Shown here one piece after another: positions 2,119-52,946 of a stretch of DNA of 64,000 nt. Position numbers and translations under genes: made by a program. Source of the DNA: an uncultured Gammaproteobacteria bacterium (GTDB taxonomy: Bacteria; Patescibacteriota; Microgenomatia; Daviesbacterales; UBA10151); assembly GCA_964625535.1 (NCBI GenBank), contig CAZVEX010000001.1, positions 295 to 64,294 of the forward strand. Direction: 5' to 3'. The notes below the pieces were generated by a model. The model was given only the letters and a program-made list of their open reading frames with translations, did not search any database and was not told where the DNA came from. The number at the start of each line of letters is the position of its first letter. The stretch's first letter is position 1.

Positions 2119-2148
2119 TTGTCAAAACTTGATCTTAAAGGTATACTT
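2119..2148 (+). promoter_or_regulatory. sigma70-like promoter for lysK: -35 TTGTCA (2119-2124), 18-bp spacer, -10 TATACT (2143-2148); the ATG lies 5 nt downstream, so the mRNA is leaderless or near-leaderless
   Basis: Hexamers read from the sequence. No Shine-Dalgarno sequence lies between the -10 and the ATG at 2154. Confidence 0.4.
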
Positions 2149-2153
2149 TACCC

Positions 2154-3719
2154 ATGTATTGGGCAGATAAGGTTGCAAAAGAAATTATAGATTCGGGAAA
2201 ATTTAAGCCATACTGGGTGGATGATATGTTTACCCCCTCGGGTTTTGCCCACATTGGTTCTTTGAGAGGGCCTTTAGTCCATGATCTTATTTATAAAGCC
2301 TTAATTCATGCAGGCGTTGATGCAAGATTTACCTATGTTTTTAATGATTTTGACCCTATTGACGGTTTACCTGAAGAGTTGGAAAAGGATTTTTCAAAAT
2401 ATCTTGGTTTTCCCCTAAGAACAGCTCCATCTCCAAAACCTGGTTTTGATAGTTTTGCTGCCTATTTTGAGAACGATTTCATGGATGTCTTAAAGAGCCT
2501 GGGATTGGAACCGGGATACTTATCTTCCTGGGATATGTATCATGAAGGTAAATTTGATGGGGTTATCAGGGAAGCTTTAGACAATGCAAATAAAATCCAA
2601 GATATATATCAAAAAGTAAGCGGTAGCAAGAAGAAAGAATTAGGATGGTTACCTTTGCAGGTAATTTGTGAAGATTGCGCTAAATTGGGTACTACCAGAG
2701 TGCATGATTGGGATGGTAAAACTGTTGCCTACACTTGTGAAGCTATTATGGTCAAATGGGCAAAGGGTTGTGGGTATGAGGGTAGAATTTCACCTTTTGG
2801 CGGTAATGGAAAGCTTCCATGGAAAGTTGATTGGCCCGCTCACTGGAAGGTCATTGGAGTAACTGTGGAAGGCGCAGGTAAGGATCATTCATCCGCAGGA
2901 GGGTCTAGGGATATAGCCAGGGAGTTTGTTAAAGAGGTTTTTCATATAGAAGAGCCTTATAATTTGCCTTATGAATTTTTCCTGATTGGGGGAAAGAAAA
3001 TGGCTTCATCTAAAGGATTGGGTTTGAAGGCAAAAGATGCAAAAAACTTATTTCCTTCGGAACTGGTGAGATTTCTATTTTCAAGAACCGATTACAGGCA
3101 ATCTGTGGAATTTGATCCTATGGAGACAATGGCAATACCGGATCTGTTTGATGAATATGATAGATGTTTTAAGGCTTTTATTAATGGATCTGATGAAAAT
3201 TTGGCAAGAGTATTTGAGATGAGTCAAATTGGGCAGTTACCAAAAAAAGAAAAAACTTATCTTGCAAGATTTAGGGATATAGTCAATTATGTCCAAATGG
3301 CAAATGTTGATATCTTGAAAAAATATGAAGAGATAAAAGGATCGGTTCTTTTGGAGATTGAAAAGAAGATTCTTGAGGAAAGAATTCAGTATGCAAAAGT
3401 TTGGATACAAAATTATGCCCCAGCAGAATTTAGATTACAAATGAGCGAAGAGTTATCGGAGAAGGTAAAGGAGTTAAGCGAGAAACAGAAAGAATTTTTG
3501 AAAAAAACTGTTGATTTAATCGAAAAAAATGATGACCCGGAAATCTTGCAATTGGCGCTTTATAATTTAACGAAAGAACTAGGAATTAATGCAAAAGAAG
3601 CTTTTTCGGCTATTTATATTACTTTAACCGGTAAAGAGTATGGTCCAAAAGCTGCTTGGTTTTTACTGCAGTATCCAAAGAAAAAAGTTATTGCAAGATT
3701 AAAAGAAGTTGCCTTATGA
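2154..3719 (+). CDS. lysK: lysine--tRNA ligase, class I (archaeal-type LysRS)
   Basis: N-terminus MYWADKVAKEII...TPSGFAHIGSLRG has the HIGH-type motif of class I LysRS. KMASSKG is the KMSKS motif. Overall length (~520 aa) and architecture fit class I LysRS. Confidence 0.9.
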   Translation: MYWADKVAKEIIDSGKFKPYWVDDMFTPSGFAHIGSLRGPLVHDLIYKALIHAGVDARFTYVFNDFDPIDGLPEELEKDFSKYLGFPLRTAPSPKPGFDSFAAYFENDFMDVLKSLGLEPGYLSSWDMYHEGKFDGVIREALDNANKIQDIYQKVSGSKKKELGWLPLQVICEDCAKLGTTRVHDWDGKTVAYTCEAIMVKWAKGCGYEGRISPFGGNGKLPWKVDWPAHWKVIGVTVEGAGKDHSSAGGSRDIAREFVKEVFHIEEPYNLPYEFFLIGGKKMASSKGLGLKAKDAKNLFPSELVRFLFSRTDYRQSVEFDPMETMAIPDLFDEYDRCFKAFINGSDENLARVFEMSQIGQLPKKEKTYLARFRDIVNYVQMANVDILKKYEEIKGSVLLEIEKKILEERIQYAKVWIQNYAPAEFRLQMSEELSEKVKELSEKQKEFLKKTVDLIEKNDDPEILQLALYNLTKELGINAKEAFSAIYITLTGKEYGPKAAWFLLQYPKKKVIARLKEVAL

Positions 3720-5816: not shown

Positions 5817-6584
5817 TTATCTCCCCTGCTGTTGTCTTTGGCGAAGCAAATCTGCGGCAGAAGTGGCGCTTTGCCCCGTACCTTCCAACCGCCCAAAGCT
5901 GGATGTTTCACTGGCCGGAGCCGGCGTGGCAGCGACTGGAGTGGGAAGTGGTGCAGGCGGTTTGACCTCTTGGGTGGCTTGAGTCGGAACTGCCGGGACG
6001 CTACCACCTTTTGGAGCCTGGCCTATCCCCAGGATAAAATAGGCAGAGACCCCCAATACTGCCAGCAACAGCCCCAGCCCTACCCCAATCAACCATTTTG
6101 GCACCCCCCTTTTTATATTGTCTGTAGGTTCGGCAGGTACTTCGGGCACAGCGGCCGGCGGTACGACCAGCGTTTCCACCTGGCCAGAGTTTGTTGGGAT
6201 TGGCTCTGCCTGGGAACTGTTGCCGACCAGGTGTGACAAATCGGTCGGGGGTGAGTCTGCGGAAGAAGTTTCAGCCAGTGCTTGAGGCGGCGTCCATGGG
6301 GGCGGGGTTGTAGGAGTACTGATTGGCGGAGGCTGAGGAGGCGCGCCCCAGGGATTATCTAGGGGATTTTCCAAAGGCGATGGGGTGGGGGGCGGTGGTG
6401 GTGGCGGGGGAGGAGCCGGTGGTGGTGGCGGGGGCATAAATGGTTCAGGGGCTGGCGGTGGGGGTTCTATAGGAAAGGTAGGGGACTGGGGGAACGGAGG
6501 GGGTGGCGGAGGAGGGGAAGAAGAAACCCCTCCTAATGGGGGATTGATATCAAATGGTGAACCGGGTTTGTTAGAGTTATCCAT
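5817..6584 (-). CDS. proline-rich membrane protein (Pro/Gly-rich N-terminal region, single TM helix, short C-terminal tail)
   Basis: 255-aa ORF with PPPPPPPFPQSPTFPIEPPPPAPEPFMPPPPPPAPPPPPPPPPTPSP..., then KWLIGVGLGLLLAVLGVSAYFILGI as a TM helix. It is strongly GC-rich relative to its flanks. It converges on the small membrane gene with a 5-nt gap, and there is a divergent promoter region shared with secA. Confidence 0.55.
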   Translation of the reverse strand: MDNSNKPGSPFDINPPLGGVSSSPPPPPPPFPQSPTFPIEPPPPAPEPFMPPPPPPAPPPPPPPPPTPSPLENPLDNPWGAPPQPPPISTPTTPPPWTPPQALAETSSADSPPTDLSHLVGNSSQAEPIPTNSGQVETLVVPPAAVPEVPAEPTDNIKRGVPKWLIGVGLGLLLAVLGVSAYFILGIGQAPKGGSVPAVPTQATQEVKPPAPLPTPVAATPAPASETSSFGRLEGTGQSATSAADLLRQRQQQGR

Positions 6585-6590
6585 TTAGGC
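6385..6590. repeat. GC-rich low-complexity (GGN/CCN)n tract inside the proline-rich CDS
   Basis: Runs such as ggtggtggtggcgggggaggagccggtggtggtggcgggggc are seen directly. They encode the poly-Pro on the minus strand and a spurious poly-Gly ORF on the plus strand. Confidence 0.7.
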
Positions 6591-6633
6591 AGTTTCTATT
6601 GTTAGTTTAGTAAATTAGTTAGTTAAATGTCAA

Positions 6634-6642
6634 TGGTATAAT
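6634..6642 (+). promoter_or_regulatory. extended -10 promoter TGgTATAAT for secA; the ATG lies exactly 7 nt downstream, giving leaderless geometry
   Basis: TGG at 6634-6636, TATAAT at 6637-6642, 7-nt spacer, secA ATG at 6650. There is no SD. Confidence 0.5.
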
Positions 6643-6649
6643 ATGCACT

Positions 6650-9334
6650 ATGCTAGGAATTTTTGGCAAACTTTTAGATTCCAACGAGAGAGAGATTAAA
6701 AAACTAAAACCTATTGTTGATAGTATTAATGCTTTTGAAAAAAAAGCATCCAAACTGACTGATAAAGAGCTTCGGGGTAAATTTGTCGAGTTTAAGCTAC
6801 AACACGAACGAGGCAGGAGTCTGGATGAGCTTTTACCGGAGGCTTTTGCCGCTGTCAGAGAGGCAAGCTTAAGAACTATCAAACAGCGCCATTTTGACGT
6901 ACAGATGATGGCGGCAACGGTTTTGCACCAGGGCAGGATTGCCGAGCAAAAAACCGGCGAAGGAAAAACCTTGTCCAGCACCCCAGCCCTGTTTTTAAAC
7001 GCCATTGCCGGTAAAGGAGTGCATCTTATTACTGTTAATGATTATCTGGCCCGCCGTGATTGCGGCTGGATGGGCCCTATTTTTTATGCCTTGGGGGCAA
7101 CTTGCGCCACTATTGTTCATGATAGCGCATTTATTTATGACCCCAAGCATAAAGATACTACGCACGACGATAAAAGATTACAGCACCTTCGTCCTGTTTC
7201 GCGAAAAGAAGCTTACGGCGCAGATATCACCTATGGAACCAATAACGAGTTCGGCTTTGATTATCTGCGGGACAACATGGTTTTTCGTTTGGAAGATGCT
7301 ATGCAACGGGGTCATTTTTTTGCCGTTGTTGATGAGGTAGATTCAATTTTAATTGACGAGGCCAGGACCCCTTTAATTATCTCCCAGCCGGCCCAGGAGG
7401 CAACCGATAAATATTTTAAGTTTTCAGAGCTGATAAGCGCCCTGTCCCCCTCGGATTATGCGGTGGATGAAAAGCTTCGAACTGCTCACCTCACCGAACA
7501 TGGCATTTTAAAAATAGAAAAAACACTGGGAGTGGATAATCTATACGAAAAAGATTTTTCCACCCTTCATCATCTGGAACAGGCTTTAAAAGCCAAGACT
7601 TTGTTTGAAAAAGACAGGGACTATGTGGTTAAAGACGGCGAGGTAATTATAGTAGATGAGTTTACCGGCCGTCTGATGCTGGGACGGCGCTACTCCGAGG
7701 GGTTGCATCAGGCAATAGAGGCCAAAGAAGGGGTGGCAATTCAACAGGAATCTCAAACCTTGGCCACCATTTCTTTTCAAAATTATTTCAGGATGTATGA
7801 AAAATTAGCCGGCATGACAGGTACTGCCGCCACCGAAGCCGAAGAATTTAATAAAATCTATAAACTGGAAGTGGTAGTTATCCCCACCCACAGACCGATG
7901 ATTCGGGCCGATCATCCGGATACGATTTATAAAACCCAAAGCGCCAAATATACGGCCGTTGCCAATTTAATTGAAAAGCTGCATGAAAAAGGACAACCTG
8001 TCCTGGTGGGAACAACTTCAATTGAAAAAAATGAATTTCTTTCGGATTTGCTCAAAAGAAAGGGTATTTCTCATGCCCTGTTAAATGCCAAAAATCACGA
8101 GAAAGAGGCGGAGATTATTTCCAAGGCAGGAGAAAGGGGAGCTGTCACTTGCGCTACCAATATGGCAGGACGTGGAGTGGATATTATTCTTGGTAAGGGT
8201 ATAGATAAACTGGGAGGACTTTTTGTAATTGGCACCGAGCGGCATGAATCAAGAAGAATAGATAATCAATTGCGGGGCCGATCCGGTCGCCAGGGTGATC
8301 CGGGAGAGTCGCGATTTTTTGTTTCTTTAGAGGATGATCTGATGAGAATTTTCGGGGGGGATCAGGTTTCCCGGGTGATGGATTTTCTCAAAATGCCAGA
8401 GGATACGCCAATTGAACACGCACTGGTTTCAAAGGCCATCGAGGGAGCCCAGAAAAAAGTGGAAGGCCACAATTTTGACATCAGAAAACACACGGTTGAA
8501 TACGATGATGTGATGAATCAGCAAAGGAGAATTATTTATGGTTTGAGAAAGAAAGTGTTGGAGGCAGCCCAAATCCAAGATACATCCTTGAAAGAGGAAA
8601 TCCTGGAAAAAGTAGCAAGCGAGATTAAAAATCTTGTCATCATACGCTCTGAAGAAGGTTTGGATGTTAAGAAAATTGCGGAAGAGTTTTCTACTATTGC
8701 CCCCCTTGACGATAAAAGTAAAGCGGATTTGGAAAAAAAGCTTTTAAGCTTATCAAATACTGACGAAATATCGCAATTTCTTATTGATTTAAGCCTTCAA
8801 TTTTACGGGCAAAGAGAAAATCAGGTGGGGCAGGATTTGGCCAGACAAATGGAGGTATTTGTTTATCTTAATACCATTGATACTTTATGGATTGAGCACC
8901 TTGATACCATGGATGATTTGCGCTCCGGCATCGGCCTTCGCGGTTATGCCCAAAGAGATCCTTTAATTGAATACAAAAGGGAAGGTTTTGATCTGTTTGA
9001 AAAGTTAATAGTGGAAGTTGATTATGAAATAGTTCACAGGATTTTTAAAGTGGCGCTGCAACAACAGCAGCCACCATCTCAACCGATTGTGGTGGAAGAA
9101 AAACATCCGGAAATAGAGGTGGGGGTGGAAACGGAAAAAGAAGAGGTAGAAACCGGAAAAGTAGATGAAGGTGGGATAACTAAAGTTACCATTGAGAGAG
9201 GAGGGCAGGTAGTTGCTCAAGAAGTTTACGGCGGTCAGGGTCAACTAACCAAACCTCACGGTAAAATCGGCCGAAATGATCCGTGCTGGTGTAATAGTGG
9301 AAAAAAGTACAAGAAATGCCATTATCCTAATTAG
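6650..9334 (+). CDS. secA: preprotein translocase ATPase SecA
   Basis: N-terminus MLGIFGKLLDSNEREIKKLKPIV resembles E. coli [25 protein letters not shown]. Walker A is MKTGEGKTL. The C-terminal zinc finger is CWCNSGKKYKKCH. Length is 894 aa. Confidence 0.95.
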   Translation: MLGIFGKLLDSNEREIKKLKPIVDSINAFEKKASKLTDKELRGKFVEFKLQHERGRSLDELLPEAFAAVREASLRTIKQRHFDVQMMAATVLHQGRIAEQKTGEGKTLSSTPALFLNAIAGKGVHLITVNDYLARRDCGWMGPIFYALGATCATIVHDSAFIYDPKHKDTTHDDKRLQHLRPVSRKEAYGADITYGTNNEFGFDYLRDNMVFRLEDAMQRGHFFAVVDEVDSILIDEARTPLIISQPAQEATDKYFKFSELISALSPSDYAVDEKLRTAHLTEHGILKIEKTLGVDNLYEKDFSTLHHLEQALKAKTLFEKDRDYVVKDGEVIIVDEFTGRLMLGRRYSEGLHQAIEAKEGVAIQQESQTLATISFQNYFRMYEKLAGMTGTAATEAEEFNKIYKLEVVVIPTHRPMIRADHPDTIYKTQSAKYTAVANLIEKLHEKGQPVLVGTTSIEKNEFLSDLLKRKGISHALLNAKNHEKEAEIISKAGERGAVTCATNMAGRGVDIILGKGIDKLGGLFVIGTERHESRRIDNQLRGRSGRQGDPGESRFFVSLEDDLMRIFGGDQVSRVMDFLKMPEDTPIEHALVSKAIEGAQKKVEGHNFDIRKHTVEYDDVMNQQRRIIYGLRKKVLEAAQIQDTSLKEEILEKVASEIKNLVIIRSEEGLDVKKIAEEFSTIAPLDDKSKADLEKKLLSLSNTDEISQFLIDLSLQFYGQRENQVGQDLARQMEVFVYLNTIDTLWIEHLDTMDDLRSGIGLRGYAQRDPLIEYKREGFDLFEKLIVEVDYEIVHRIFKVALQQQQPPSQPIVVEEKHPEIEVGVETEKEEVETGKVDEGGITKVTIERGGQVVAQEVYGGQGQLTKPHGKIGRNDPCWCNSGKKYKKCHYPN

Positions 9335-10157: not shown

Positions 10158-11583
10158 GATCTGTCAAATTGGTGTTTTGCCCGCTGCAAGCATCTTTCAT
10201 TAAATCTTTTGACGGGATCTGGGTTGGAGGTATTACCCCGATATGGCCAAATTTTACTTTGACTTCACCTAGAGCATACTCATCAGGTATAACAATGTTA
10301 TACACCGGACTGCCCCGCCCCGCTACGGCAATATGGGCGTTTTTAAGGAAAAGAAAGTACCGAAAACCCACATTTTCTCCGGGTGAGGTGATGTAATTTA
10401 TGGAAAAGCAGGGGAAGTTTTTACTCTTTGCATCATTTACTATGTAATCAACCACAGCTTTTTTCTCCAGGTAGCCTTTGGCATAATAATTCTGGCCCGT
10501 AATAGAATAGAAACTTTTAATTAGAATGAGAAATAATAAAACTAGGGTAATGAACAAACCTTTTTTCGAGGACTTATATAAAAGGTAGATACAAAGAGAA
10601 GCAATTGCTAAAAATACCACATTGGAGTTGGAGAAATAATATTCCGAAATGGGCGAGGAGGAAAAGTAAAAAAATAAAACCGGACCAATGATCCAGATGC
10701 AAAGAAGGACTGCCTCTTTTAATGCAATTAATTTGGTCTTTACAAGTAATATCCCTGATAAGAAGATAGCGATAGTAAGCAAGGGTGTAAAAAATAGCTG
10801 GTGGATATTTTTATTTAGCATTCCCAAGATCAGCTGGAATCTGTAAAGACCTGTTGGTCCCCCTTCCTGATGCAATCCGAAATTATTTATCAAGCTGTAA
10901 GTTTGATTAAAATTATGTTTAAATTCAAATATAACCAGTGGCGCGGATGTTATCAATAGAAAGATGAGAAAAAGCGCTATATTTCTAAAATCCGGCAGTT
11001 TTTTGGAAGCAAATATTGCAAACGGCAGGCTTAACAGGACAGGGATTAAGGCAATATGTATATGCCAGATGAGCCCGATAAGAGCGCCCATCAGCCAAAA
11101 AAAATGAAATCTTCCCCGGGAGAGCATGATAAGCGCATATAAATACCAAACGGACCAGAGAGGCGTGGTTATTGTGGGGACTATCCATCTGTCAAAATTG
11201 ACGGTTGCCGGCATAGTTGCATACAGTAGTGCTCCCACCAGTCCGACTTTTTCATTAAAAATTTTAGAAAAAACCCAATAGTAGCTTATGATAGTTGCCA
11301 GTCCCAACAAAATTGCGGGTATAGTTGCACCGATAGGATCCATCTTAGTCAAAATAAAAAAGGGAACTAAAAAATAATAAAACAATGGCCCGATATAAAT
11401 TCCCGGAGCTGAAGTCAACTGACCTATGAGCCTGAAATGGTGATTTACTGTGATATCTTTAACAATCCAGGAAAAAAGATCAGCGTCGTGTCCAAAACCC
11501 ATCCTTTCCGCCAGTTGATAGGTTCTAAAGAAAAGGCCCAAAACAATAATTAGAATAAGCAAAAGAAGTTGAGACCTTTTCAT
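10135..11583 (-). CDS. GT-C-fold polytopic membrane glycosyltransferase (PMT_2/ArnT-like)
   Basis: 482 aa with 10+ hydrophobic helices and a C-terminal soluble domain. It resembles the other GT-C genes in the window. Its 3' end overlaps nnrD by 23 bp in convergent orientation. Confidence 0.6.
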   Translation of the reverse strand: MKRSQLLLLILIIVLGLFFRTYQLAERMGFGHDADLFSWIVKDITVNHHFRLIGQLTSAPGIYIGPLFYYFLVPFFILTKMDPIGATIPAILLGLATIISYYWVFSKIFNEKVGLVGALLYATMPATVNFDRWIVPTITTPLWSVWYLYALIMLSRGRFHFFWLMGALIGLIWHIHIALIPVLLSLPFAIFASKKLPDFRNIALFLIFLLITSAPLVIFEFKHNFNQTYSLINNFGLHQEGGPTGLYRFQLILGMLNKNIHQLFFTPLLTIAIFLSGILLVKTKLIALKEAVLLCIWIIGPVLFFYFSSSPISEYYFSNSNVVFLAIASLCIYLLYKSSKKGLFITLVLLFLILIKSFYSITGQNYYAKGYLEKKAVVDYIVNDAKSKNFPCFSINYITSPGENVGFRYFLFLKNAHIAVAGRGSPVYNIVIPDEYALGEVKVKFGHIGVIPPTQIPSKDLMKDACSGQNTNLTDPMLGYVQ

Positions 11584-11605
11584 ATAAATGTTAAACTAAC
11601 ACACC

Positions 11606-12346
11606 ATGATAGTTTCGGCAATAAGATCAAGAAAATTTTTACCTCCCAAAGATGATCTTTGGCAACTTTTATCAGAAAGCATTAAATCGTTGGAGGAAAA
11701 TTGTGTGGTGGCAGTTACTTCCAAAGTGGTATCAATTGGCGAGGGCAGATGCGTATTGACAAAGATAAAAAGCAAAGACGAGCTGGCAATGATGGAAGCG
11801 GATAAGTATATTCCCCGCAAATTAGCTCCTCATGGACTGGTGATGCATACAATTAAAAATAATATTCTGGTAGCATCTGCCGGAGTGGATGAAAGTAACG
11901 GGGCCGGATTTTATATTCTCTGGCCAAAAGACCCCCAATCATCAGCCAAAAAAATTTGGCAGTTTTTAACAAAAAAGTTTAAAGTAAAAAATCTGGGAGT
12001 AATCATAACGGATTCCCGGTTGGTGCCGCTGCGCCGTGGAGTAGTGGGAGTGGCCATTGGCTATTTTGGATTTTTGCCTTTGAGGAATTATCGGGGTAAA
12101 AAGGATTTATTTGGCAGAAAGTTTGAAATGGAAACATCCAATCTTCCTGATAGTTTGGCCACGGCGGCGGTTTTAGAAATGGGGGAGGGAGCGGAGCAAA
12201 CACCGCTTGCTGTCATCTTCGATATTCCTTATATCAAATTTAGCAAAACTTTTTACAGTTTTCAGATTCCCGAAAAAGAAGATATATTTTATCCGCTGTT
12301 ATCTGTTGTTAAGTGGCAGAAAGGCGGGAGCGGAAAAAATCAATAG
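11606..12346 (+). CDS. CofE-like gamma-glutamyl ligase family protein (F420-0:gamma-glutamyl ligase fold)
   Basis: VVAVTSKVVSIGEGRCV...ASAGVDESNGAGFYILWP...GVIITDS resembles the CofE family (PF01996). Confidence 0.55.
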   Translation: MIVSAIRSRKFLPPKDDLWQLLSESIKSLEENCVVAVTSKVVSIGEGRCVLTKIKSKDELAMMEADKYIPRKLAPHGLVMHTIKNNILVASAGVDESNGAGFYILWPKDPQSSAKKIWQFLTKKFKVKNLGVIITDSRLVPLRRGVVGVAIGYFGFLPLRNYRGKKDLFGRKFEMETSNLPDSLATAAVLEMGEGAEQTPLAVIFDIPYIKFSKTFYSFQIPEKEDIFYPLLSVVKWQKGGSGKNQ

Positions 12347-13235
12347 TTTTTGCTAAGCCTTCATTCAGACTGACTTTGGCGTTCCAGCCCAGTTCTTTTT
12401 TAATTTTTTCAGACGAAGCAACCAGTGCTGTCACATCCCCTTTTCTTTCTCCCTGATCATCAATTGGAACCTCATACCCCACCAAATCAAAAATAGTTTT
12501 TATCACATCAGCGACTTTTACTCCGGTTTCAGTACCTACATTATATATATGCAATCCTGTCAAGTTTAAGGGCAGCACATGAGCCAAACTTAAATCATCA
12601 ATATAAATAAAATCCCTTATCTGGCTGCCTTTCCAAAAAAGAGGGAGGGGTTTTTTCTCCAAGGCGGCCTGGATAAAATTGGGTATGGCATGCGTTTCGG
12701 GTTGATGTAACTCACCCGGTCCGTATGGATTAAAATACCGCAAAATTGTTACATCAAAATTATGGAGATTATGGTAAAGCAGACAAAGTTGCTCCATAGT
12801 CACTTTGGTTATCCCGTAAGTATTTTCCTGTTTACCCAGCGGCATATCTTCCGTGATTGGCAATTTTTTGGGTTTTCCGTAAACGCAGGCGCTGGATGAA
12901 AAAATAATCTTTTTTACCCCTGTATTTTTCATGGCCTGCAAAAGTTTGGCAGTTCCCAAAATATTATTTTCCACAAACTCCACCGGTTTTTTGACAGACT
13001 CCCCCACCTCAATTAAAGAGGCCATGTGGATAACGCCTTCATGTCCGGCTAGCACTTCCTCCAATCTTTCCTGATGCAAAATATCAGCCTCTACAAAAGT
13101 GGCCCTTTTATCTATTGATGCTTTGTTGCCGTGAGAGAGATTATCTATGATTGTAACCTGATGTCCCAGTTCAAGAAGCAACCTAACAACATGTGAGCCA
13201 ATAAAACCTGCCCCGCCTGTGACTAATATTTTCAT
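12309..13235 (-). CDS. NAD-dependent sugar epimerase (UDP-glucose 4-epimerase-like, short-chain dehydrogenase/reductase family)
   Basis: MKILVTGGAGFIGSH Rossmann motif, catalytic YGITK (YxxxK) and SSSACVYG are present. Its 3' end overlaps the CofE-like gene by 38 bp in convergent orientation. Confidence 0.8.
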   Translation of the reverse strand: MKILVTGGAGFIGSHVVRLLLELGHQVTIIDNLSHGNKASIDKRATFVEADILHQERLEEVLAGHEGVIHMASLIEVGESVKKPVEFVENNILGTAKLLQAMKNTGVKKIIFSSSACVYGKPKKLPITEDMPLGKQENTYGITKVTMEQLCLLYHNLHNFDVTILRYFNPYGPGELHQPETHAIPNFIQAALEKKPLPLFWKGSQIRDFIYIDDLSLAHVLPLNLTGLHIYNVGTETGVKVADVIKTIFDLVGYEVPIDDQGERKGDVTALVASSEKIKKELGWNAKVSLNEGLAKTIDFFRSRLSAT

Positions 13236-13242
13236 ATATGAA

Positions 13243-13265
13243 ATTTTAACACATTCTAGTATAGT
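13243..13265. promoter_or_regulatory. divergent promoter pair in a 40-bp intergenic region. The minus strand carries TGtTAAAAT (13243-13251), 7 nt before the epimerase ATG. The plus strand carries TATAGT (13260-13265), 10 nt before the GT-C ATG.
   Basis: Read from the sequence. Neither start codon has an SD. Confidence 0.4.
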
Positions 13266-13275
13266 TTAAGTTGTC

Positions 13276-14757
13276 ATGTTGAAATGGATTTTGGTTATTT
13301 TGGTTTTAACCATTGCTTTGCGCATTGTGTATATTCCATCGGGCGCAGTTTCATTTCACTATGACATGGCAAGAGACGCATATGCAGCCTTGCAGATTTG
13401 GAACGGTGATTTAAAAATTCAAGGCCCTCCCACTTCCACCCCGGGTCTATATCACGGCCCGCTTTATTATTATCTGCTGGCTCCAATTTATGGTTTGGGT
13501 GGAGGAGACCCCCGAGTGGTGGCAATATTTTTTTCTCTGATTAATGCCTTGGTGGTCATTCCGGTGATGTTTTTGGCCAGAGATATTTTTAAATCGGATA
13601 AATGGGCCATCCTTTCCGGAATATTTTTTGTCTTTTCTTTTGAAAACACCCAGTATGGCCCTTGGATTTCAAATCCCGCGCCTGCTGTTTTAACTGTGGC
13701 TTTGTTTTTTCTATTTTTGCTACATTGGCAAAAGGGTAAAGAGTATGGATTATATCTGGCCATAATATCTGCCGCACTTTCCGTGCAATTTCAATTTTTC
13801 TTAATTTATCTTTTGTTTTTAATTCCTGTTTTTGGATATTTATTTAAAATCAAAACAAATTTTAAGCAAAAAATTAATTCTATTTTTATAACCTTAGTTG
13901 GTTTAAGTTCGTTTTTTGTGGCGGCTTTAAAGTTTGGAAATTTGCAAAATTTTACAGGAGGATTTTTCAATATTGCAACTGCCGGTCAAATTGATTTTAG
14001 GTCACAATTTAGTGCACTGGCGCTAAATTATCTGGACAAATTTTCCGAAACTTTTATTTATAACTTTTTCCCTACTAATGTTTTTCTGGGAGGATTATTG
14101 GCATTTTTGAGTTTAATACTACTCAAAAATAAACTTCTGTTTTTTTATTTATTTTTTAATTTGCCCATTTTTATTTTTGGCGGTCACAGCAATACTTATG
14201 CCAATTTAGGGTTAGTCGTGGGAGCGATTTTGGCAGTTTTGAACACGATTAAAATTATTGCAAAAAAGAGCGTCATACTTGCGGCAGCATTGATTTTACT
14301 TTTGGCTATATCTAATCTTTATGCCATATTTAAAAACGGGCCCTTGGGACAAGTTATTTTGGTAATCCCCAATGATATGGTTTTAAAAAATCAATTAAAA
14401 TTAATAGATGAAACTTACCAAAAAGCCGCGGGTCAAGCATTTTCCATAAATACTTTAACGCTCCCTCTTTGGACAAATACCACATGGAGTTATCTTTATT
14501 CCTGGTATGGGCAAAAAAAATACGGATATGTGCCAAAGTTTTTAGGACACAATCAAGTCGGGTTGTTAGGGGCAAATGCCTTGGAAAAAATAGACCAACC
14601 GCTTGAAAAAACGTTTTTCATTATCGAACCCCATGTGGGAATTCCCGATGATATTTATAATCTGGAAATAGGAGCAGAGGATAGTAAAAGCAAATTAATT
14701 TCCGAAACAAAATATGGAGAGTTAAGATTGCAATTTAGAATGCCAAAAAATGAATAA
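13276..14757 (+). CDS. GT-C-fold membrane glycosyltransferase (family with the YDMARD / GPPTS-GLYHGPLYYY N-terminal motif)
   Basis: It shares the N-terminal motif and a C-terminal W(Y/W)G(Q/K)KKYGY(V/I)P motif with the ORF at 14750 and with the C-terminal half of the ORF at 29891. Confidence 0.6.
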   Translation: MLKWILVILVLTIALRIVYIPSGAVSFHYDMARDAYAALQIWNGDLKIQGPPTSTPGLYHGPLYYYLLAPIYGLGGGDPRVVAIFFSLINALVVIPVMFLARDIFKSDKWAILSGIFFVFSFENTQYGPWISNPAPAVLTVALFFLFLLHWQKGKEYGLYLAIISAALSVQFQFFLIYLLFLIPVFGYLFKIKTNFKQKINSIFITLVGLSSFFVAALKFGNLQNFTGGFFNIATAGQIDFRSQFSALALNYLDKFSETFIYNFFPTNVFLGGLLAFLSLILLKNKLLFFYLFFNLPIFIFGGHSNTYANLGLVVGAILAVLNTIKIIAKKSVILAAALILLLAISNLYAIFKNGPLGQVILVIPNDMVLKNQLKLIDETYQKAAGQAFSINTLTLPLWTNTTWSYLYSWYGQKKYGYVPKFLGHNQVGLLGANALEKIDQPLEKTFFIIEPHVGIPDDIYNLEIGAEDSKSKLISETKYGELRLQFRMPKNE

Positions 14758-16249: not shown

Positions 16250-16628
16250 TTATCAATCGCTTGTTATCTTCTAATTTTTCTATACTTATTTTTTTTGTTT
16301 TTTGGGGTAAATATCTTAATTTTTCAGCCCATTCAATTAAAACTATATTATTTTTATCAGATAAAATTTCCTCAAGACCTAAATGATCAAAAGTATTTAT
16401 TCTGTACAGATCAATGTGATAGAGATTTTTATACTGTCTGATTAAAACAAAAGTAGGGGAAATAATTTTATCTTTAATTCCTAAACCTTTGGCAAAACCC
16501 TGGACAAAGGTGGTTTTGCCTGTACCCAAGTCTCCGGATAGAGCAATAATTCCTCCCTTAAGTTTTCTAGCTAAATTTCCTGCCAGTTTTTTAGTTTCTT
16601 GCGGTGAATTGGTGATAAATTTTTTCAT
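16239..16628 (-). CDS. tsaE: tRNA threonylcarbamoyladenosine biosynthesis ATPase TsaE (YjeE)
   Basis: P-loop GDLGTGKTTF and a 129-aa size typical of TsaE. Its 3' end overlaps the GT-C gene by 11 bp in convergent orientation. Confidence 0.8.
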   Translation of the reverse strand: MKKFITNSPQETKKLAGNLARKLKGGIIALSGDLGTGKTTFVQGFAKGLGIKDKIISPTFVLIRQYKNLYHIDLYRINTFDHLGLEEILSDKNNIVLIEWAEKLRYLPQKTKKISIEKLEDNKRLITID

Positions 16629-16639
16629 TGAGGGAGATT

Positions 16640-17692
16640 TTAACCCCTTTTCATAAAAAGGTAAACTGCAAAACCGCCCGAGGCAAAAAGAAAAATCCCA
16701 CCCGTGACATAAAATAATGTAGGTACTTTCCCTCCGGCAACTTTTAATTGCGGGGAGGAAGATGCGCGTTTTTGACCAGATGGGGTTGATGATTTTTTGT
16801 ATTTTTCCAAAGAATAGACTATTTCCGGCAACTCTTCTTGTTTTTTGCTTTCTCCTAAAATGGCAGACGATTTGGGAGTTGAAAGTCCTGATAAACTGAT
16901 ACTCCCTTCGGCAATTTCTACCTCCTTGGCATTGATTTTTACAGTTACCTCATTGCTCCAAGTTGGACCTGATCCGCCGGATGTGTATCTGCCGACTTTG
17001 AAACCGTATTCTCCCGCTCCCTGATATCCCGCATCCATGATATCCGGCTGAATTTCCAAGTTTCCTGACCAACTGCCGGATGAGTTGGTGGTAATTTGAT
17101 ACTGGGAAGAAAAACTGCTGCCATTTTTTATCCAAGAAGAGCCTACTTTGGTCAATCCGAAATAATTGCTGGAACCTTCTTTTCTAAAAGCTCCTTTTAA
17201 ATAAAAGTTGGTATTGGGATAAGAAGATAATTCCAAATTTACTGATGTTGTAAAAGTTTGAGTAGAGTCAATTGATGATGGAACATTAGAAATGGTAAAA
17301 GCAGAGGTAGTTGAGGGAGAAGGGGAGGGTGAAGGAGTTGGGGAAGGGGAGGAGGCGGATAGAATAAAAGACCATGTACTACTCCATTCGCTCCACGTTC
17401 CCCCTGAATCCTTGGCTTTAACTCGCCAGTACCAGGTACCAGCTGATAAAACAGGAGTGTAATTGGTATTGGCAGTGGGATAATCTTTAGGTGGCTGAAT
17501 AAAACCTGTCTCATCATCTACCTGAACTCGATAAGGACTGCTGGTGTACAGTAAATACGAAGGAGCCTGCCAGGTTAAGGTGGTGGAAGAAACTGTGGAT
17601 CCGCTGGCTGGAGATTGTTGAGATGGACCGCTGACCGCATAGACGGAATTAACGAAGAACCCCGCTAAAAACAAAATCAGCCACTTGAGCAT
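16640..17692 (-). CDS. secreted surface protein: signal peptide, fibronectin type III-like domain, Ser/Pro/Thr linker, C-terminal TM anchor
   Basis: Signal peptide MLKWLILFLAGFFVNSVYA is followed by an FN3-like WYWRVKAKDSGGTWSEWSSTWSF stretch. Then come an SPSPTPSPSPSPS linker, a Ser/Thr/Gly-rich region and a C-terminal hydrophobic helix TLFYVTGGIFLFASGGFAVYLFMKRG. Confidence 0.6.
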   Translation of the reverse strand: MLKWLILFLAGFFVNSVYAVSGPSQQSPASGSTVSSTTLTWQAPSYLLYTSSPYRVQVDDETGFIQPPKDYPTANTNYTPVLSAGTWYWRVKAKDSGGTWSEWSSTWSFILSASSPSPTPSPSPSPSTTSAFTISNVPSSIDSTQTFTTSVNLELSSYPNTNFYLKGAFRKEGSSNYFGLTKVGSSWIKNGSSFSSQYQITTNSSGSWSGNLEIQPDIMDAGYQGAGEYGFKVGRYTSGGSGPTWSNEVTVKINAKEVEIAEGSISLSGLSTPKSSAILGESKKQEELPEIVYSLEKYKKSSTPSGQKRASSSPQLKVAGGKVPTLFYVTGGIFLFASGGFAVYLFMKRG

Positions 17693-17714
17693 CTAAAACC
17701 ATCATAACTTAAAG

Positions 17715-18860
17715 TCATAACAGGTGCCAGTAAATAGTGACCAGGCCGTTTTGATGATCAACAACCACCCCTTTAGCGGGTCCGTTATCAAAGCCGGCAA
17801 TCCGACATCCCGAATCTCCGATAGAATAGGCTACCCCGTCGGCAGCAGCTAAAATAGGAGTCCCGACATACTTATCATCATACATATCCAAACCGGTATG
17901 AGTCCCCAGCGCGTATAGTTCCCCATACTCCGTGCTAATGGTGGTTGATCCCGGATAACCTTGCATGGGCGGGCCAAGTTGTCCGTTATCAAGGTATTTA
18001 TGAGGATTGATTCTGCTGCCGTTAACCCTGCCTCCCTCTACTTTGGCATTTTCATAAACTTCAAAATGCAGATGAGGACCGCTGGAACAACCGGATGTTC
18101 CTTCAGATCCTATTTGTTGGCCTTTTTTGACCGGACCGATGACTATTCCCACATTGGATATGGCTCTGGCAATAGAATCTGCATCTGCCTTAAGCTGGGC
18201 AATCAGCCCCTGGAATCTGGCTTCGTCATTTTGGGTGATTCTTAAAAGTTCTTCCTTGGCTTTTTTTTGTTCTTCCAGCTGCTGCTTATAAGTTTCCAGA
18301 TCTTTATTTAATTTTTCCGCCTCTTGTTGTCTTACCTCCTTATCCTGTTTTTGATCGTTGTAAGCTTGCTTAGTAGCTTGCAGCTCATATAATTTCCTCT
18401 TATCATAGGCCTGGGCCACTTGAATATACTTTAACCGTTGCAGCAGATCGGCAAAGCCGTGGGAAGAAAAAAGAAAATCCAGGGTGGACAGATTGGAGTA
18501 TTTATAAGTTTGGACAATTCGCCGCAAGAGAATTTCTGACAGCGTATCCAGCGAGGAAGAAATTCGTGAAATACGGGTTGAGAGCTCGGCAATTTCTCTT
18601 TTGAGTTTTTCAATCCGTAAATTGGTTTCCTCAATTTTTAAGACTGTAACTTTGCCTTGGCTGTCTATAATGTTAAGCTGGGATTTTAAAGTGCGCTCGT
18701 TACCTCTGGCATTTTCAAGCTGGCTTTCCAGTTTGGCAATTTCTGCCTGTTTTTCCTGCAGCTTTGCGCTTAACTCCTCATTAGACTCGGCAAAAACAGG
18801 AAGAAAAAATGGGCTAAGCAAAAAAAGCCCGAGAACAAAGATTAAGAATAGCTTTTTCAT
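17715..18860 (-). CDS. coiled-coil M23-family metallopeptidase (EnvC/PcsB-like FtsEX partner) with an apparently circularly permuted M23 domain
   Basis: Signal peptide, then ~200 aa of coiled coil. The GQQIGSEGTSGCSSGPHLHFEV (HxH) motif comes BEFORE HTGLDMY...GTPILAAADGV (HxxxD) and ...VVVDHQNGLVTIYWHLL. The protein ends right after WHLL. It overlaps ftsX by 4 nt. Confidence 0.8.
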   Translation of the reverse strand: MKKLFLIFVLGLFLLSPFFLPVFAESNEELSAKLQEKQAEIAKLESQLENARGNERTLKSQLNIIDSQGKVTVLKIEETNLRIEKLKREIAELSTRISRISSSLDTLSEILLRRIVQTYKYSNLSTLDFLFSSHGFADLLQRLKYIQVAQAYDKRKLYELQATKQAYNDQKQDKEVRQQEAEKLNKDLETYKQQLEEQKKAKEELLRITQNDEARFQGLIAQLKADADSIARAISNVGIVIGPVKKGQQIGSEGTSGCSSGPHLHFEVYENAKVEGGRVNGSRINPHKYLDNGQLGPPMQGYPGSTTISTEYGELYALGTHTGLDMYDDKYVGTPILAAADGVAYSIGDSGCRIAGFDNGPAKGVVVDHQNGLVTIYWHLL

Positions 18861-19741
18861 ATCCGAAGATATCTTCTGGTGGCGCCAAATGATCCCACTG
18901 CTCCCACTAAACAGGCCAGCAAAATAGCAAGTATAAGCAAAAATATCATCAATACAGGGCTGGGGGGCAAAAGTTTGATTTCACCCAGGTATCCCCCTTG
19001 AATAAAGGGAGTAAAATACCAAAGCAGGATGTAAATGACCGCCCAGGCAAATGTGGCGCCCACCACTCCATAAAACATTCCTTCCAGAATAAAAGGCATT
19101 CTGATAAATGATGTTGATGCCCCCATCAGACGCATGGTTTCGATTTCATTTCGCTTAAGCCTGATCTTAAACCCGATGATCATCAAAATTTGCAGGATGG
19201 CATAAAGTATCAGGTAGGTTACAATTACTCCGCCAACGATTCTAACTACCAGGGTGGCGGTAGAGAGGTTAGCTACTACATCTTCGGGAAAGACCACATC
19301 TTCCACCACCGGTTCCTGTTTTAGGATTTCAGCTACCGGAGCTAAATCTTGCAAAGTTAGAGTGGAAACTTCTAGGGATGGGGGTAGGGTGCTGGCTGTC
19401 ACCAGTTCAACCAAGAGTGGGTCTTTGCCCTGATTAAACTTTTTATAAATTTGCAGGGCCTCTTCCCGGGAAACATATTTGGTTTTGGTGACCTGGTAGT
19501 AGCTTTTCAGGTTGTCTTCTATGGCCTGAATATCTTCTTCGGTGGTGCCGTCTTTAAAAAAGGCGATGACTTGAGGTCTTGACTCATAATATTGTAAAGT
19601 TGCTTGCAACCCGATAGAAATAAGCAGGAAACCGATCAGGGCCAAAAAGGCCGAAAACATGGCCAGGGAGGCGGCTGCGGCCTGAAAGGGGGTTCTTTTA
19701 ATGTTTCTTTTGGCAAATTTAATGTAGTTTCCCAAACTCAT
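18857..19741 (-). CDS. ftsX: cell division permease FtsX
   Basis: Four-TM topology with a large extracytoplasmic loop between TM1 and TM2. It is adjacent to and overlapping ftsE. Confidence 0.8.
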   Translation of the reverse strand: MSLGNYIKFAKRNIKRTPFQAAAASLAMFSAFLALIGFLLISIGLQATLQYYESRPQVIAFFKDGTTEEDIQAIEDNLKSYYQVTKTKYVSREEALQIYKKFNQGKDPLLVELVTASTLPPSLEVSTLTLQDLAPVAEILKQEPVVEDVVFPEDVVANLSTATLVVRIVGGVIVTYLILYAILQILMIIGFKIRLKRNEIETMRLMGASTSFIRMPFILEGMFYGVVGATFAWAVIYILLWYFTPFIQGGYLGEIKLLPPSPVLMIFLLILAILLACLVGAVGSFGATRRYLRI

Positions 19742-20412
19742 TCGTATTTACCCTCCTTAGTGTCTTTGGTGATCTTACCCGCTTTTAGAGTTATTACTCG
19801 CCGCTTCAAGGTATTGACAATTTCTTGGTTGTGAGTAGCCATCAGGATGGTGGTGCCCCAGGAGTTGATCTCATTGAGCAGCTGAATCACTCCCCAGGCT
19901 GTTTTAGGGTCTAAATCGCCGGTTGGCTCATCAGCCAAAACTATGTCGGGTTTACCCACCACCGCCCGGGCAATGACAGTGCGCTGAGCCTCCCCTCCGG
20001 AAAGTTGTCGCGGGAACAAATTCCGCCTATCCCAAATTTCCACCAGTTTTAGAGTATGTTCCACGGCCCTCCCAATTTCCTCATCGGATTTACCCAAAAC
20101 TTCCAAGGCCAGGGCCACCTGCTCAAAAACGGTCCTGTCGTCCAGTAGCTTGAAATCCTGGAAAACTACCCCCACTTTTCTCCTCAAATTTGGGATCTCA
20201 CCGTTTTTTAGTTTAGTAATGTCCATTTTATTAACAACGACTGTGCCGCTTGTGGGTATTACTTCCCGGGTTAGAATTCTCAAAAGGGTGGTTTTACCCG
20301 CTCCGGAGGGTCCAACCAAAAAGACGAACTCTCCCTGTTTAATTTCCAGGGAAATGTCATCCAGAGCGGTAGCTGAACCAAACTTTTTGAAGACTTTGTC
20401 AAATAAGATCAT
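19738..20412 (-). CDS. ftsE: cell division ATP-binding protein FtsE
   Basis: Walker A GPSGAGKTT, ABC signature LSGGEAQR and Walker B ILADEPTGDLD are present. Length is 224 aa. Confidence 0.9.
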   Translation of the reverse strand: MILFDKVFKKFGSATALDDISLEIKQGEFVFLVGPSGAGKTTLLRILTREVIPTSGTVVVNKMDITKLKNGEIPNLRRKVGVVFQDFKLLDDRTVFEQVALALEVLGKSDEEIGRAVEHTLKLVEIWDRRNLFPRQLSGGEAQRTVIARAVVGKPDIVLADEPTGDLDPKTAWGVIQLLNEINSWGTTILMATHNQEIVNTLKRRVITLKAGKITKDTKEGKYE

Positions 20413-20853: not shown

Positions 20854-21831
20854 TTAACCCTTTATCACTTCCGCGTCAATAAACTGTTCTAAATCTCCAT
20901 CCAAAACGGAATTTGTATCTTGAGTTTCCACTTGGGTGCGAAGGTCCTTGACCATATGGTAAGGATGTAAAACATAAGATCTGATTTGAGTGCCCCATGA
21001 AGCTTGGGTGGTGCTTTTTAAGCTTTGGGTCTGGGTTTGTTTTTCAGTTTGTTGCAGGGTCCAAAGTTTGGCCCGAAGTAACTTCGTGGCATTTTCCCGA
21101 TTTTGTAGTTGTGACCTCTCTGTTTGGGCAGTCACCACCAGCCCCGTAGGAATGTGTCTTAATCTGACAGCAGTGTTGACCTTATTAACATTTTGGCCTC
21201 CCGCTCCGCCGGACCTGAATGCTTCAAATTCTATTTCATCCTCTTTAATTTCCAGTTCTACATTTTCAATTACCGGCAAGACTTCAACTAAGGCAAAAGA
21301 TGTTTGCCGCAGTTTATCTGCATTAAATGGAGATTGTCTCACTAATCTGTGAGTGCCTGCTTCACCTTTCAAGTAGCCGTATGCTAGGGGAGCATGGACA
21401 ATCATGGAAACTGATTTGTATCCGGCCTCTTCCCCTAAACTTTCATCAGAAACTTCATATTTCCAGCCTTTTCTTTCAAAAAATCTCTGGTACATGCGAT
21501 AAAGCATGCCGGCCCAATCCATGGCTTCCACCCCTCCTGTGCCGGAATGGATAGAAACTATGGCTTCGGATTGATCGTGCGGACCAGAAAGATAAGTCTT
21601 GAGCTCAAACTCTTTTAATAATTTTTCATTTAAGTTTTGCTCCAAATTTTCCAGGATGTCCAGAGTTTTTTGTTTATCTGCCAGTTCTTGCGAAGCCTTG
21701 GTGGCCTTTTCTCTATCATCCCAAAATCCGGGTTGCGTCATTTGACTTTCCAACTGCCTGATTTCCCCACGCAAAACCTCCCGATCAAAAGATTTCGAAA
21801 TTTTCTCAAACCTAACTTTTAAATCATCCAT
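20854..21831 (-). CDS. prfB: peptide chain release factor 2, single contiguous ORF (no programmed +1 frameshift)
   Basis: GGQ motif (SGGAGGQNVNKV) and the RF2-specific SPF motif (RQSPFNADK) are present. The N-terminus ...VLRGEIRQLESQ runs through where E. coli has the frameshift site. Confidence 0.9.
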   Translation of the reverse strand: MDDLKVRFEKISKSFDREVLRGEIRQLESQMTQPGFWDDREKATKASQELADKQKTLDILENLEQNLNEKLLKEFELKTYLSGPHDQSEAIVSIHSGTGGVEAMDWAGMLYRMYQRFFERKGWKYEVSDESLGEEAGYKSVSMIVHAPLAYGYLKGEAGTHRLVRQSPFNADKLRQTSFALVEVLPVIENVELEIKEDEIEFEAFRSGGAGGQNVNKVNTAVRLRHIPTGLVVTAQTERSQLQNRENATKLLRAKLWTLQQTEKQTQTQSLKSTTQASWGTQIRSYVLHPYHMVKDLRTQVETQDTNSVLDGDLEQFIDAEVIKG

Positions 21832-21837
21832 AGGGAA

Positions 21838-21846
21838 ATTATAGCA
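21838..21846 (-). promoter_or_regulatory. extended -10 TGcTATAAT (minus strand); the prfB ATG lies 6 nt downstream, giving leaderless geometry
   Basis: The reverse complement of 21832-21846 is tgcTATAATttccct. This directly abuts the ATG (reverse complement of 21829-21831). Confidence 0.45.
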
Positions 21847-21891: not shown

Positions 21892-22491
21892 TTATGCCGC
21901 AGATGTTTCGATTTTGGAGATTAGCCAATTAGGAGTTACCTCCAACCCTGTAAATCCAATCACCTCGTAAATTTGTGCTACCCCAAGAGATGTGATTCTA
22001 TGAAGAGCATCAAGAAGTCTTTCTGGTAATAAATAATCTTTTTGTCGTTTTACCAATTCATCAACAATTCCGGCATCTCTTCTTGTTTCTTCATGTATCC
22101 ATCCTACGGTGCTACTTAAACGCCTTAATAATTCTTCTCCCAGATTTGTTACTCGCTGTGCAGTTTCCCTTTGATATACCGTGGTTATAATTTCTCTCGC
22201 CAATTCTCCAGCTAAATTTATTCTTTTTGGTTCATGCAAGTCAAAAGGTTTTTCTGAATCTGCAACTAAAGCTAGTTTCCTTATGCCCGGATTACCCCAA
22301 AACAATCTGCTGTCAATTTCCCCCTCGGCTATGTAGGAGACGAGTTGACCTTGAGAGTTCATCCTGAATCCTTCTCTACCTACCCTCATACCCATTAGCC
22401 CATATGAATATTGAGGGTCTCCTCTGTCGTCAATGATTATCCTCGCCCAGTTGATATCTGGATATGAATCCACAGTTAAAATTTCCGCCAT
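21892..22491 (-). CDS. hypothetical soluble protein, first gene of the prfB-ftsEX operon
   Basis: 199-aa ORF with no recognisable motif. It is co-directional with prfB and 60 bp upstream of it. Confidence 0.5.
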   Translation of the reverse strand: MAEILTVDSYPDINWARIIIDDRGDPQYSYGLMGMRVGREGFRMNSQGQLVSYIAEGEIDSRLFWGNPGIRKLALVADSEKPFDLHEPKRINLAGELAREIITTVYQRETAQRVTNLGEELLRRLSSTVGWIHEETRRDAGIVDELVKRQKDYLLPERLLDALHRITSLGVAQIYEVIGFTGLEVTPNWLISKIETSAA

Positions 22492-22499
22492 AATGACCT

Positions 22500-22550
22500 A
22501 TAATACCAAGTTTTCTCGTATTTGTCAATAATTATTAAGCCTGATAGAAT
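22500..22550. promoter_or_regulatory. divergent promoter region. On the minus strand, TGgTATTAT (22500-22508) sits 8 nt before the ATG at 22491. On the plus strand, -35 TTGTCA (22522-22527), a 17-bp spacer and -10 TAGAAT (22545-22550) sit 6 nt before the ATG at 22557.
   Basis: Hexamers read from the sequence. Both downstream genes lack an SD and start 6-8 nt after the -10. Confidence 0.5.
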
Positions 22551-22556
22551 TTAGGC

Positions 22557-22841: not shown

Positions 22842-22845
22842 ATAC

Positions 22846-26498: not shown

Positions 26499-26530
26499 AC
26501 AGATGGTTGACGAGATAGCCTCCCATTAGA

Positions 26531-26536
26531 TATAGT
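26531..26536 (+). promoter_or_regulatory. -10-like TATAGT located 10 nt upstream of the gmd ATG (possible internal, leaderless-type promoter)
   Basis: Read from the sequence. No SD is present. Confidence 0.3.
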
Positions 26537-26546
26537 AGAGCAAGCT

Positions 26547-29868: not shown

Positions 29869-29890
29869 AATTTGATGTTAGCATATTACC

Positions 29891-32784: not shown

Positions 32785-32796
32785 TATAATGGTAAG

Positions 32797-52941: not shown

Positions 52942-52946
52942 AATTG

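Follow-up and report, generated by a model that had tools for sequence, protein, structure and literature searches.

The stretch of DNA considered here (the window; 64,000 nucleotides [nt], or 64 kb) comes from an uncultivated groundwater bacterium of the Candidatus Daviesbacteria (Microgenomates), in the Candidate Phyla Radiation (CPR, also called Patescibacteria), and has a GC content of ~39%. Among its genes are secA, lysK, prfB, galE, gmd, and many glycosyltransferase genes. In front of secA, and of many other genes that begin a transcription unit, lies a -10 promoter box so close to the start codon that transcription would be expected to begin on, or only a few nucleotides before, the A of the ATG. 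The initial annotation had listed eight such sites, all of which are present in the sequence (for lysK the promoter stands but not its spacers, which had been given as 18 and 5 nt and are 17 and 6 nt, a one-base miscount). Its count of at least seven starts was borne out but is too low, as the window has no fewer than 18, or 19 with the weaker rmlB candidate, and the 7.8 kb upstream of it has another four (Table 1).

The sample from the source genome comprises 71.8 kb, i.e., the window joined to the upstream 7.8 kb (contig L083, with independent gene calls), and holds 60 curated gene starts. We define a leading gene as one that is divergent from its neighbor or that starts at least 20 nt after the preceding gene (n = 22). 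The remainder are short-gap genes (gaps of 0-17 nt; n = 6) and tightly packed internal genes (n = 32). The motif scored is TAnnnT ending 5-10 nt before the start codon. It precedes 18 of the 22 leading genes (82%), compared with 13.7% of all ATGs on both strands (binomial p=1.2e-12), which is the positional enrichment that the initial annotation had predicted, here checked in 71.8 kb. It also precedes five of the six short-gap genes and only four of the 32 tight internal genes; the latter is the background rate, and none of the four has a TG one base upstream of the hexamer (TGn). The difference between leading and internal genes is strong (Fisher p=4e-7). In total, 23 of 60 genes (38%) have an adjacent -10 box. 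The spacing is 6 nt at 10 sites, 7 nt at four, 8 nt at four, 9 nt at two, and 10 nt at three, and the most frequent of these equals the canonical distance between a -10 box and the first transcribed base (+1). At control offsets in the same upstream sequences the motif is about threefold rarer (13 of 15 versus 4 of 15 and 4 of 15). The upstream 7.8 kb, which had been held out, shows the geometry at four of its six leading genes.

The boxes carry other marks of promoters. In Escherichia coli and Gram-positive bacteria, extended -10 promoters used by sigma-70 have a TG one base upstream of the hexamer, and a poor -35 hexamer is then tolerated. The TG is placed in the same way here, at 15 of the 23 sites, versus 6.8% of all TAnnnT sites (p=8e-13), and the putative promoters of secA, prfB, and galE have -35 hexamers matching at three positions of six or fewer. 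The extended -10 element itself is no different here, and it is the fixed distance to the start codon that is special. A -35 hexamer with at least five of six matches lies 16-18 nt from the -10 box at eight of the 23 sites (2% background, p=8e-9), and the base at -1 is a pyrimidine at 37 of 51 sites in the window and relatives, versus 26 of 55 internal genes (p=0.01).

Given that TAnnnT strings are common near starts in AT-rich intergenic DNA, the pattern could in principle be a product of chance. The 13.7% background is not negligible, and a generic promoter scan finds barely more sites than are found in shuffled sequences (61 vs. 46.6, and 50 vs. 43.2). However, counts made independently of annotation argue otherwise. 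There are 38 sigma-70-like sites that match at 10 or more of 12 positions, and seven of them have their end 4-11 nt ahead of a gene start, where 0.13 would be expected. The composite TGnTAnnnT-N5-10-ATG occurs 32 times, versus 16 +/- 3.9 in dinucleotide shuffles, and 15 of these matches open a reading frame (ORF) of 90 codons or more, compared with 0.12 in shuffles (maximum 1); 14 of the 15 are gene starts. Chance, to which we assign next to no probability, is excluded by the enrichment (p values of 1e-8 to 1e-18), the position-specific peak within the same upstream sequences, the composite motif, and the conservation of the geometry in orthologs described below; the co-occurrence of TGn and -35 hexamers with the motif also speaks against it. 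A shifted-spacing control (ORFs of at least 90 codons only) shows trends that agree with the main result, significant in Saccharibacteria only, but discriminates poorly, being inflated by in-frame internal ATGs; the profile of TANNNT relative to any ATG is inflated by the same internal ATGs and by codon periodicity.

Leading genes also lack Shine-Dalgarno (SD) sequences, as had been claimed for the promoter-adjacent starts. When an SD is scored as a duplex free energy (dG) of -5 kcal/mol or lower with the anti-SD, a value reached by 16% of random positions, only one of 22 leading genes has one. The contrast drawn earlier with the internal gene rfbA (rmlA) also holds, in that AGGAG lies 7 nt before its true start, GTG 23873; the rmlA_long profile and independent gene calls both show the longest ORF (from TTG 23765) to be 36 codons too long. 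Overall, internal genes have SDs hardly more often than chance would give (10 of 38), and the SDs that are present are strong (AAGGAGG, GGAGG, AGGAG; ftsX, rmlA, rmlC, g31, g37, and g51). Among same-strand junctions, 25 of 44 overlap, 14 of them by 4 nt (ATGA type); such junctions fit termination-reinitiation and suggest heavy reliance on translational coupling. One of the small genes involved is a 53-amino-acid (aa) hydrophobic ORF at 23715-23876(+), between the CAP-family gene and rmlA, which has a stop/start overlap with both neighbors and is called as 52-90 aa in three related loci (L089, L091, and L093). Rfam and tRNA scans of the window gave no rRNA, tRNA, or Rfam match, and the 16S anti-SD is thus outside the window data.

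Low SD use, together with the AT-richness of the genome, could be taken to mean that TAnnnT acts on leadered mRNAs as a non-SD, A/U-rich element for ribosome binding or enhancement, of the kind found in Bacteroidetes (GeneMarkS-2 group B), with transcription starting further upstream. Some CPR lineages do lack the anti-SD, which is missing in part of the Parcubacteria according to a study of CPR ribosomes that does not address leaderless mRNAs (PMC9297842). We nonetheless consider this explanation improbable. A ribosome-binding element would be expected before all genes, whereas the motif is at background before tight internal genes, and it is accompanied by TGn and by -35 hexamers at 16-18 nt, which are DNA features read by RNA polymerase.

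The arrangement of divergent genes bears on the same question. In two divergent pairs (29866-29893 and 11581-11608) the start codons are separated by exactly 22 nt, a space too small to hold leaders, or distinct upstream promoters, outside coding sequence, contrary to what an A/U-rich element on leadered mRNAs would require. In the first pair, ATGTTAGCAT at 29875-29884 is a symmetric extended -10 element on both strands, 6 nt from each ATG. Two wider pairs are hyp199/tsaB (22489-22559; 65-nt gap), in which the -35 hexamers TTGACA and TTGTCA overlap at 22522-22528, and galE/GT-C (13233-13278), in which the 40-nt gap is also conserved in the related loci L089 and L090. The gaps are fixed, at 22, 40, and 65 nt, because the pairs share promoter elements. 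Warman and colleagues reportedly described, in 2021, symmetric bidirectional promoters that share a -10 region, with the commonest divergent start sites said to be 18 bp apart. ATGTTAGCAT is similar in that divergent starts would arise from one symmetric A/T-rich element, and different in that the A's of the two start codons lie at a distance of 23 bp and only the central TA is common to both hexamers.

The promoters could also be real and the called starts wrong, in which case translation would begin at a downstream in-frame codon and the ORFs as called would contain ordinary leaders. Starts in a metagenome-assembled genome (MAG) are predictions, and for hyp199, g9, g15, and g29 there is no profile to constrain the N terminus. 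The starts at the 23 sites (22 ATG and one GTG) are all the first start codon of their ORF, except ATG 52947, which TTG 52944 adjoins. However, profile alignments begin at residues 1-7 in eight families (lysK, secA, galE, gamma-glutamate ligase, gmd, tsaB-like, rmlB, and GT2), and independent gene calls give identical starts. Misplaced starts would also leave unexplained why the spacing to the ORF's first ATG is so sharply set at 6 nt, and both the ATG and the spacing are conserved in orthologs. We therefore give this possibility very little weight, marginally less than the A/U-rich element.

Some observations on individual starts may be added. A programmed frameshift that might hide an upstream start of prfB was looked for and not found, and the ORF has no start codon ahead of ATG 21831. 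The prfB product (release factor RF2; 20854-21831, -) has 325 aa, and there is no programmed +1 frameshift in this Daviesbacteria clade; distant relatives have 354-370 aa. The tsaB-like ORF at 22557-22841(+), with 94 aa, matches the N-terminal 89 of 212 profile positions. All five related loci retain versions of comparable shortness (98-114 aa), which means that the ORF is not a pseudogene fragment. The divergent gene hyp199 (21892-22491, -) has no homolog other than itself among 5.8 billion clustered proteins.

Using PrfB homologs with 77%-88% identity, we reached three syntenic Daviesbacteria loci with independent gene calls. In these, 23 of 24 leading genes (96%) have the motif at 5-10 nt (background 14.7%, p=1.4e-18), the commonest spacing is again 6 nt, and 12 have TGn. 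The promoters of orthologous prfB, tsaB, hyp, galE, GT-C, gmd, and CAP genes keep the geometry while their sequences have diverged. For prfB the arrangement is TGcTATAAT-6 in L089 and TGgTATAAT-6 in L092, with a spacing of 8 nt in L091; for tsaB it is TGtTAAAAT-6-ATG in L089 and L091; and the 6-nt spacing of the CAP gene is conserved in L089, L091, L092, and L093. Two more distant syntenic Microgenomates loci show the geometry at about half of their leading genes (e.g., TGgTATAAT-6 at prfB, and TATAAT-6 and -9 at secA). In L090 (2085-2108), a Fic-domain gene inserted upstream has an 8-nt overlap with the start of prfB and makes prfB internal; there, AAAGGAG occurs in addition to the retained TATACT-6-ATG. 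The start appears to have switched naturally, from leaderless to SD-led.

Taken together, the spacing, the TGn, -35, and -1 pyrimidine marks, the absence of SDs, the restriction to leading and short-gap genes, the start codons, and the conservation all fit the leaderless reading offered in the initial annotation. From these features we infer both where transcription starts and how ribosomes are recruited, and we think it very likely that the transcripts of first cistrons begin at the A of the ATG or no more than 1-3 nt from it and that these cistrons are translated from a 5'-terminal AUG. In the mechanism that we propose, sigma-70-type promoters, mostly with an extended -10 (TGnTAnnnT) and often with a TTGACA-like -35 at 16-18 nt, would direct RNA polymerase to begin with the A of the ATG, or with a base no more than 1-3 nt before it. 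With promoters so placed, the first-cistron mRNA would begin with 5'-AUG, without an SD, and ribosome and initiator tRNA would bind this terminal AUG. Downstream cistrons in packed operons would be translated via a strong SD in a minority of cases and otherwise via termination-reinitiation at stop/start overlaps, and some genes located 0-17 nt past the preceding stop would have their own leaderless-type promoter embedded in the end of the upstream gene.

Several points weigh against this interpretation. The +1 positions are predictions from promoter geometry, and the overall scope is ~72 kb of one genome plus ~92 kb of relatives. Four of the 22 leading genes look leadered. One is lon, which has a good promoter with its -10 box 14 nt from the ATG; the H+-PPase (GGGGA) and hisG-like (AGGA) genes have SD-containing leaders; and the fourth is the glycine-rich gene that starts at 6584(-) (Table 1), with a predicted SD-less leader of ~12 nt and a similar layout in L092. 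The 8- to 10-nt spacings make up nine of the 23 sites, and these may give leaders of 1-3 nt instead of none. Folding of the first 25 and 40 nt gives the predicted leaderless mRNAs no less structure than the mRNAs of other genes (mean at 25 nt of -1.07 vs. -0.60 kcal/mol). Lastly, in high-GC Actinobacteria loci that were intended as a positive control, start calling by longest ORF did not recover the known leaderless signal (two of 37). Given this failed control, cross-lineage comparisons are calibrated for low-GC genomes only.

Table 1. Start codons with an adjacent candidate promoter, followed by contrasting and exceptional genes (window coordinates; numbers between elements are spacers in nt)
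Gene	Position	Strand	Elements	Remarks
lysK (class I LysRS)	2119..2156	+	TTGTCA-17-TATACT-6-ATG	TIGR00467 profile aligns 1-517 to 1-512
secA (anchor)	6634..6652	+	TGGTATAAT (6634-6642; TGgTATAAT), then ATGCACT (7 nt), ATG 6650	SecA profile aligns from residue 7 to profile position 4; same sequence and gene call in L088
PMT_2-like gene 10135-11583	11581..11601	-	TGtTAGTTT-9-ATG (or TAACAT-4)	Half of 22-nt divergent pair
Gamma-glutamate ligase-like gene	11569..11608	+	TTGAGA-17-TGtTAAACT-8-ATG	TIGR04132 profile 1 to 1
galE-type epimerase	13233..13251	-	TGTTAAAAT (TGtTAAAAT)-7-ATG 13235	GalE profile 2 to 1; conserved in L089, L090
GT-C (PMT_2-like) gene	13238..13278	+	TATAGT-10-ATG 13276 (alternatively TAGTTT-8)	Conserved in L089, L090
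tsaE	16626..16665	-	TTTACC-17-TAAAAT-8-ATG	Promoter within last codons of upstream gene; 11-nt gap
350-aa gene 16640-17692	17690..17730	-	CTGGCA-18-TATGAT-8-ATG	
prfB	21829..21846	-	TGCTATAAT (TGcTATAAT)-6-ATG 21831	
Hypothetical 199-aa gene (hyp199)	22489..22528	-	TTGACA-17-TGGTATTAT (TGgTATTAT)-8-ATG 22491	Best promoter match in window, 11/12
tsaB-like (94 aa)	22522..22559	+	TTGTCA-17-TGaTAGAAT-6-ATG 22557	-35 overlaps -35 of divergent gene
CAP/YkwD-family gene	22831..22848	+	TGaTATACT-6-ATG	4 nt past tsaB-like stop
rmlB	24940..24958	+	TAAAAT-10-ATG	Weakest candidate; 0-nt gap, without TG or -35
gmd	26507..26549	+	TTGACG-18-TATAGT-10-ATG 26547	Conserved in L089
GT2 / divergent gene pair	29866..29893	both	ATGTTAGCAT: TGtTAGCAT-6-ATG 29891 (+, GT2); TGcTAACAT-6-ATG 29868 (-)	
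PMT_2 gene	32762..32799	+	ATGATA-17-TGaTATAAT-6-GTG	Internal promoter, 12 nt past upstream stop
GT2 gene	45989..46007	+	TGaTAAGAT-7-ATG	17-nt gap
PMT-family gene	52931..52949	+	TGtTAACAT-7-ATG 52947	Preferred over adjacent TTG 52944; 122-nt gap
cobA	upstream 7.8 kb		TGtTAAAAT-6	
greA	upstream 7.8 kb		TTGACA-17-TAAAAT-6	
Histidine kinase	upstream 7.8 kb		TTGACC-18-TACTCT-6	
Response regulator	upstream 7.8 kb		TTGACC-18-TAAAAT-9	
rmlA/rfbA	23861..23875	+	AGGAG-7-GTG	Contrast, internal; start overlaps stop of 53-aa ORF
ftsX	19739..19762	-	AAGGAGG, 10 nt, ATG	Contrast, internal
Gly-rich gene 5817-6584	6582..6633	-	TTGACA-18-TAAACT, 19 nt from ATG	Exception

The glycine-rich gene (255 aa) is divergent from secA and has no Pfam or NCBIfam match. 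Its short SD-less leader (6585-6604, -), ending ...AAACTGCC(C/TAA)ATG, is kept in the distant loci L092 and L093. The region is also of interest from the point of view of assembly. Window positions 1-6413 are identical to the end of a 339-kb NCBI contig (JACPUM010000003.1, GCA_016192235.1), and prfB is on another contig (192.5 kb) of the same assembly. The contig break, at window 6413/6414, falls in a GGTGGTGGC (glycine-rich) repeat within the ORF at 5817-6584(-). The join in the window is genuine, as an independent Logan contig (L088) equals window 5664-7261 with no mismatches, and it carries the same calls for the 255-aa gene and the secA start. Exact-protein look-ups for SecA and for the gene at 58290-59360 returned no match.

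The right-hand part of the window is a 34-kb run, 29891-64000(+), of ~30 same-strand genes, mostly GT2 and PMT_2-like (GT-C) glycosyltransferase paralogs. Within it there are only three internal leaderless-type promoters, at 32797, 46005, and 52947. In addition, TGTTAGAAT-7-ATG occurs at 41886-41906(+), in frame inside a 1138-aa ORF (38997-42413) and 169 codons before its stop. It may serve, within the gene, as promoter and start codon for a C-terminal product, or else have arisen by chance.

As for breadth, we collected 80 secA loci from species-representative genomes; the closest SecA is only ~55% identical, and the set thus offers breadth and no close relatives. The secA geometry is present in loci labeled Collierbacteria, Sungiibacteriota, Peribacteria, and Uhrbacteria, and secA has SDs in loci from Saccharibacteria, Firmicutes, and Actinobacteria. 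A locus-wide scan of the Saccharibacteria loci found 19 ORF-opening ATGs exactly 6 nt past a promoter-like site, compared with ~1-2 at other distances, and this peak includes orthologous serS, ftsE, and murD-like genes in several species. The same scan of the Firmicutes loci, used as a control, gave no 6-nt peak. On the basis of these secA starts and locus scans (~20-kb samples with naive gene calls), we raise as a tentative idea, one that we rate somewhat below even, that leaderless initiation is the default for transcription units across much of the CPR (Microgenomates such as Daviesbacteria, Saccharibacteria, and probably Peribacteria and Parcubacteria). If so, the share of leading genes in Daviesbacteria, more than 80%, would exceed the figure for every bacterial phylum described and be on a par with archaea, and leaderless starts would be paired with the reduced CPR ribosome, weak use of SDs, and widespread stop/start coupling.

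It is useful to compare this with leaderless systems already described. In genomes of GeneMarkS-2 group C, mainly Actinobacteria and Deinococcus-Thermus, a Pribnow box lies 6-8 nt from the start of first genes (PMC6028130; PMC3160421), and 25%-50% of operons are leaderless (PMC6028130). The Daviesbacteria pattern is alike in having the Pribnow box near first-gene starts, no SD there, and internal genes that use ribosome-binding sites. It differs in that this CPR lineage has ~39% GC rather than high GC, that SD use at internal genes is barely above chance, and that the share is 82% in the source and 96% in the sister genomes rather than 25%-50%, figures that come from a small sample and a different definition of leading genes. 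Archaeal-type (group D) leaderless transcription can be set aside, because a TATA box would be expected ~26 nt upstream, and the element here ends 5-10 nt from the start and comes with a bacterial -35 at 16-18 nt.

In Deinococcus-Thermus, ~30% of ORFs have an adjacent -10 box, the highest value among the phyla studied (Life Sci Alliance 2025, PMC12340547), and this box, directly upstream of ORFs as it is here, serves as the promoter for leaderless mRNAs. The text of that paper does not mention the CPR. In our sample the figure is 38% (23 of 60 genes), and the sites mostly have TGn and often a -35. In mycobacteria, mRNAs have the A or G of the start codon as their first base, and the -10 box lies directly upstream (Cortes et al. 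2013, PMC3898074; Shell et al. 2015, PMC4633059). The mixture of leaderless first genes and SD-led genes is similar; however, the mycobacterial starts were established by transcription start site mapping and ribosome profiling, whereas ours are predicted from sequence, and GUG starts are common there, whereas 22 of 23 are ATG here. In the literature searched on leaderless expression in Patescibacteria/CPR, TM7x, and Saccharibacteria, we found no description of the phenomenon, only mentions in reference lists or unrelated uses of the term. What we report thus appears to be a known bacterial leaderless architecture, apparently undescribed for the CPR/Patescibacteria, at unusually high frequency.

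The CPR/Patescibacteria make up a large share of bacterial diversity, and knowledge of them comes almost wholly from predicted genes. Provided that most of their transcription units are leaderless, predictors of gene starts in CPR genomes should model a -10 box beside the start codon rather than an SD, and the design of promoters and expression cassettes for the newly tractable Saccharibacteria can copy the TGnTATAAT-6-ATG module. It becomes possible to test how leaderless translation in the CPR is linked with reduced ribosomes and partial loss of the anti-SD, and the range of high-frequency leaderless expression would be extended past the Actinobacteria, Deinococcus-Thermus, and archaea.

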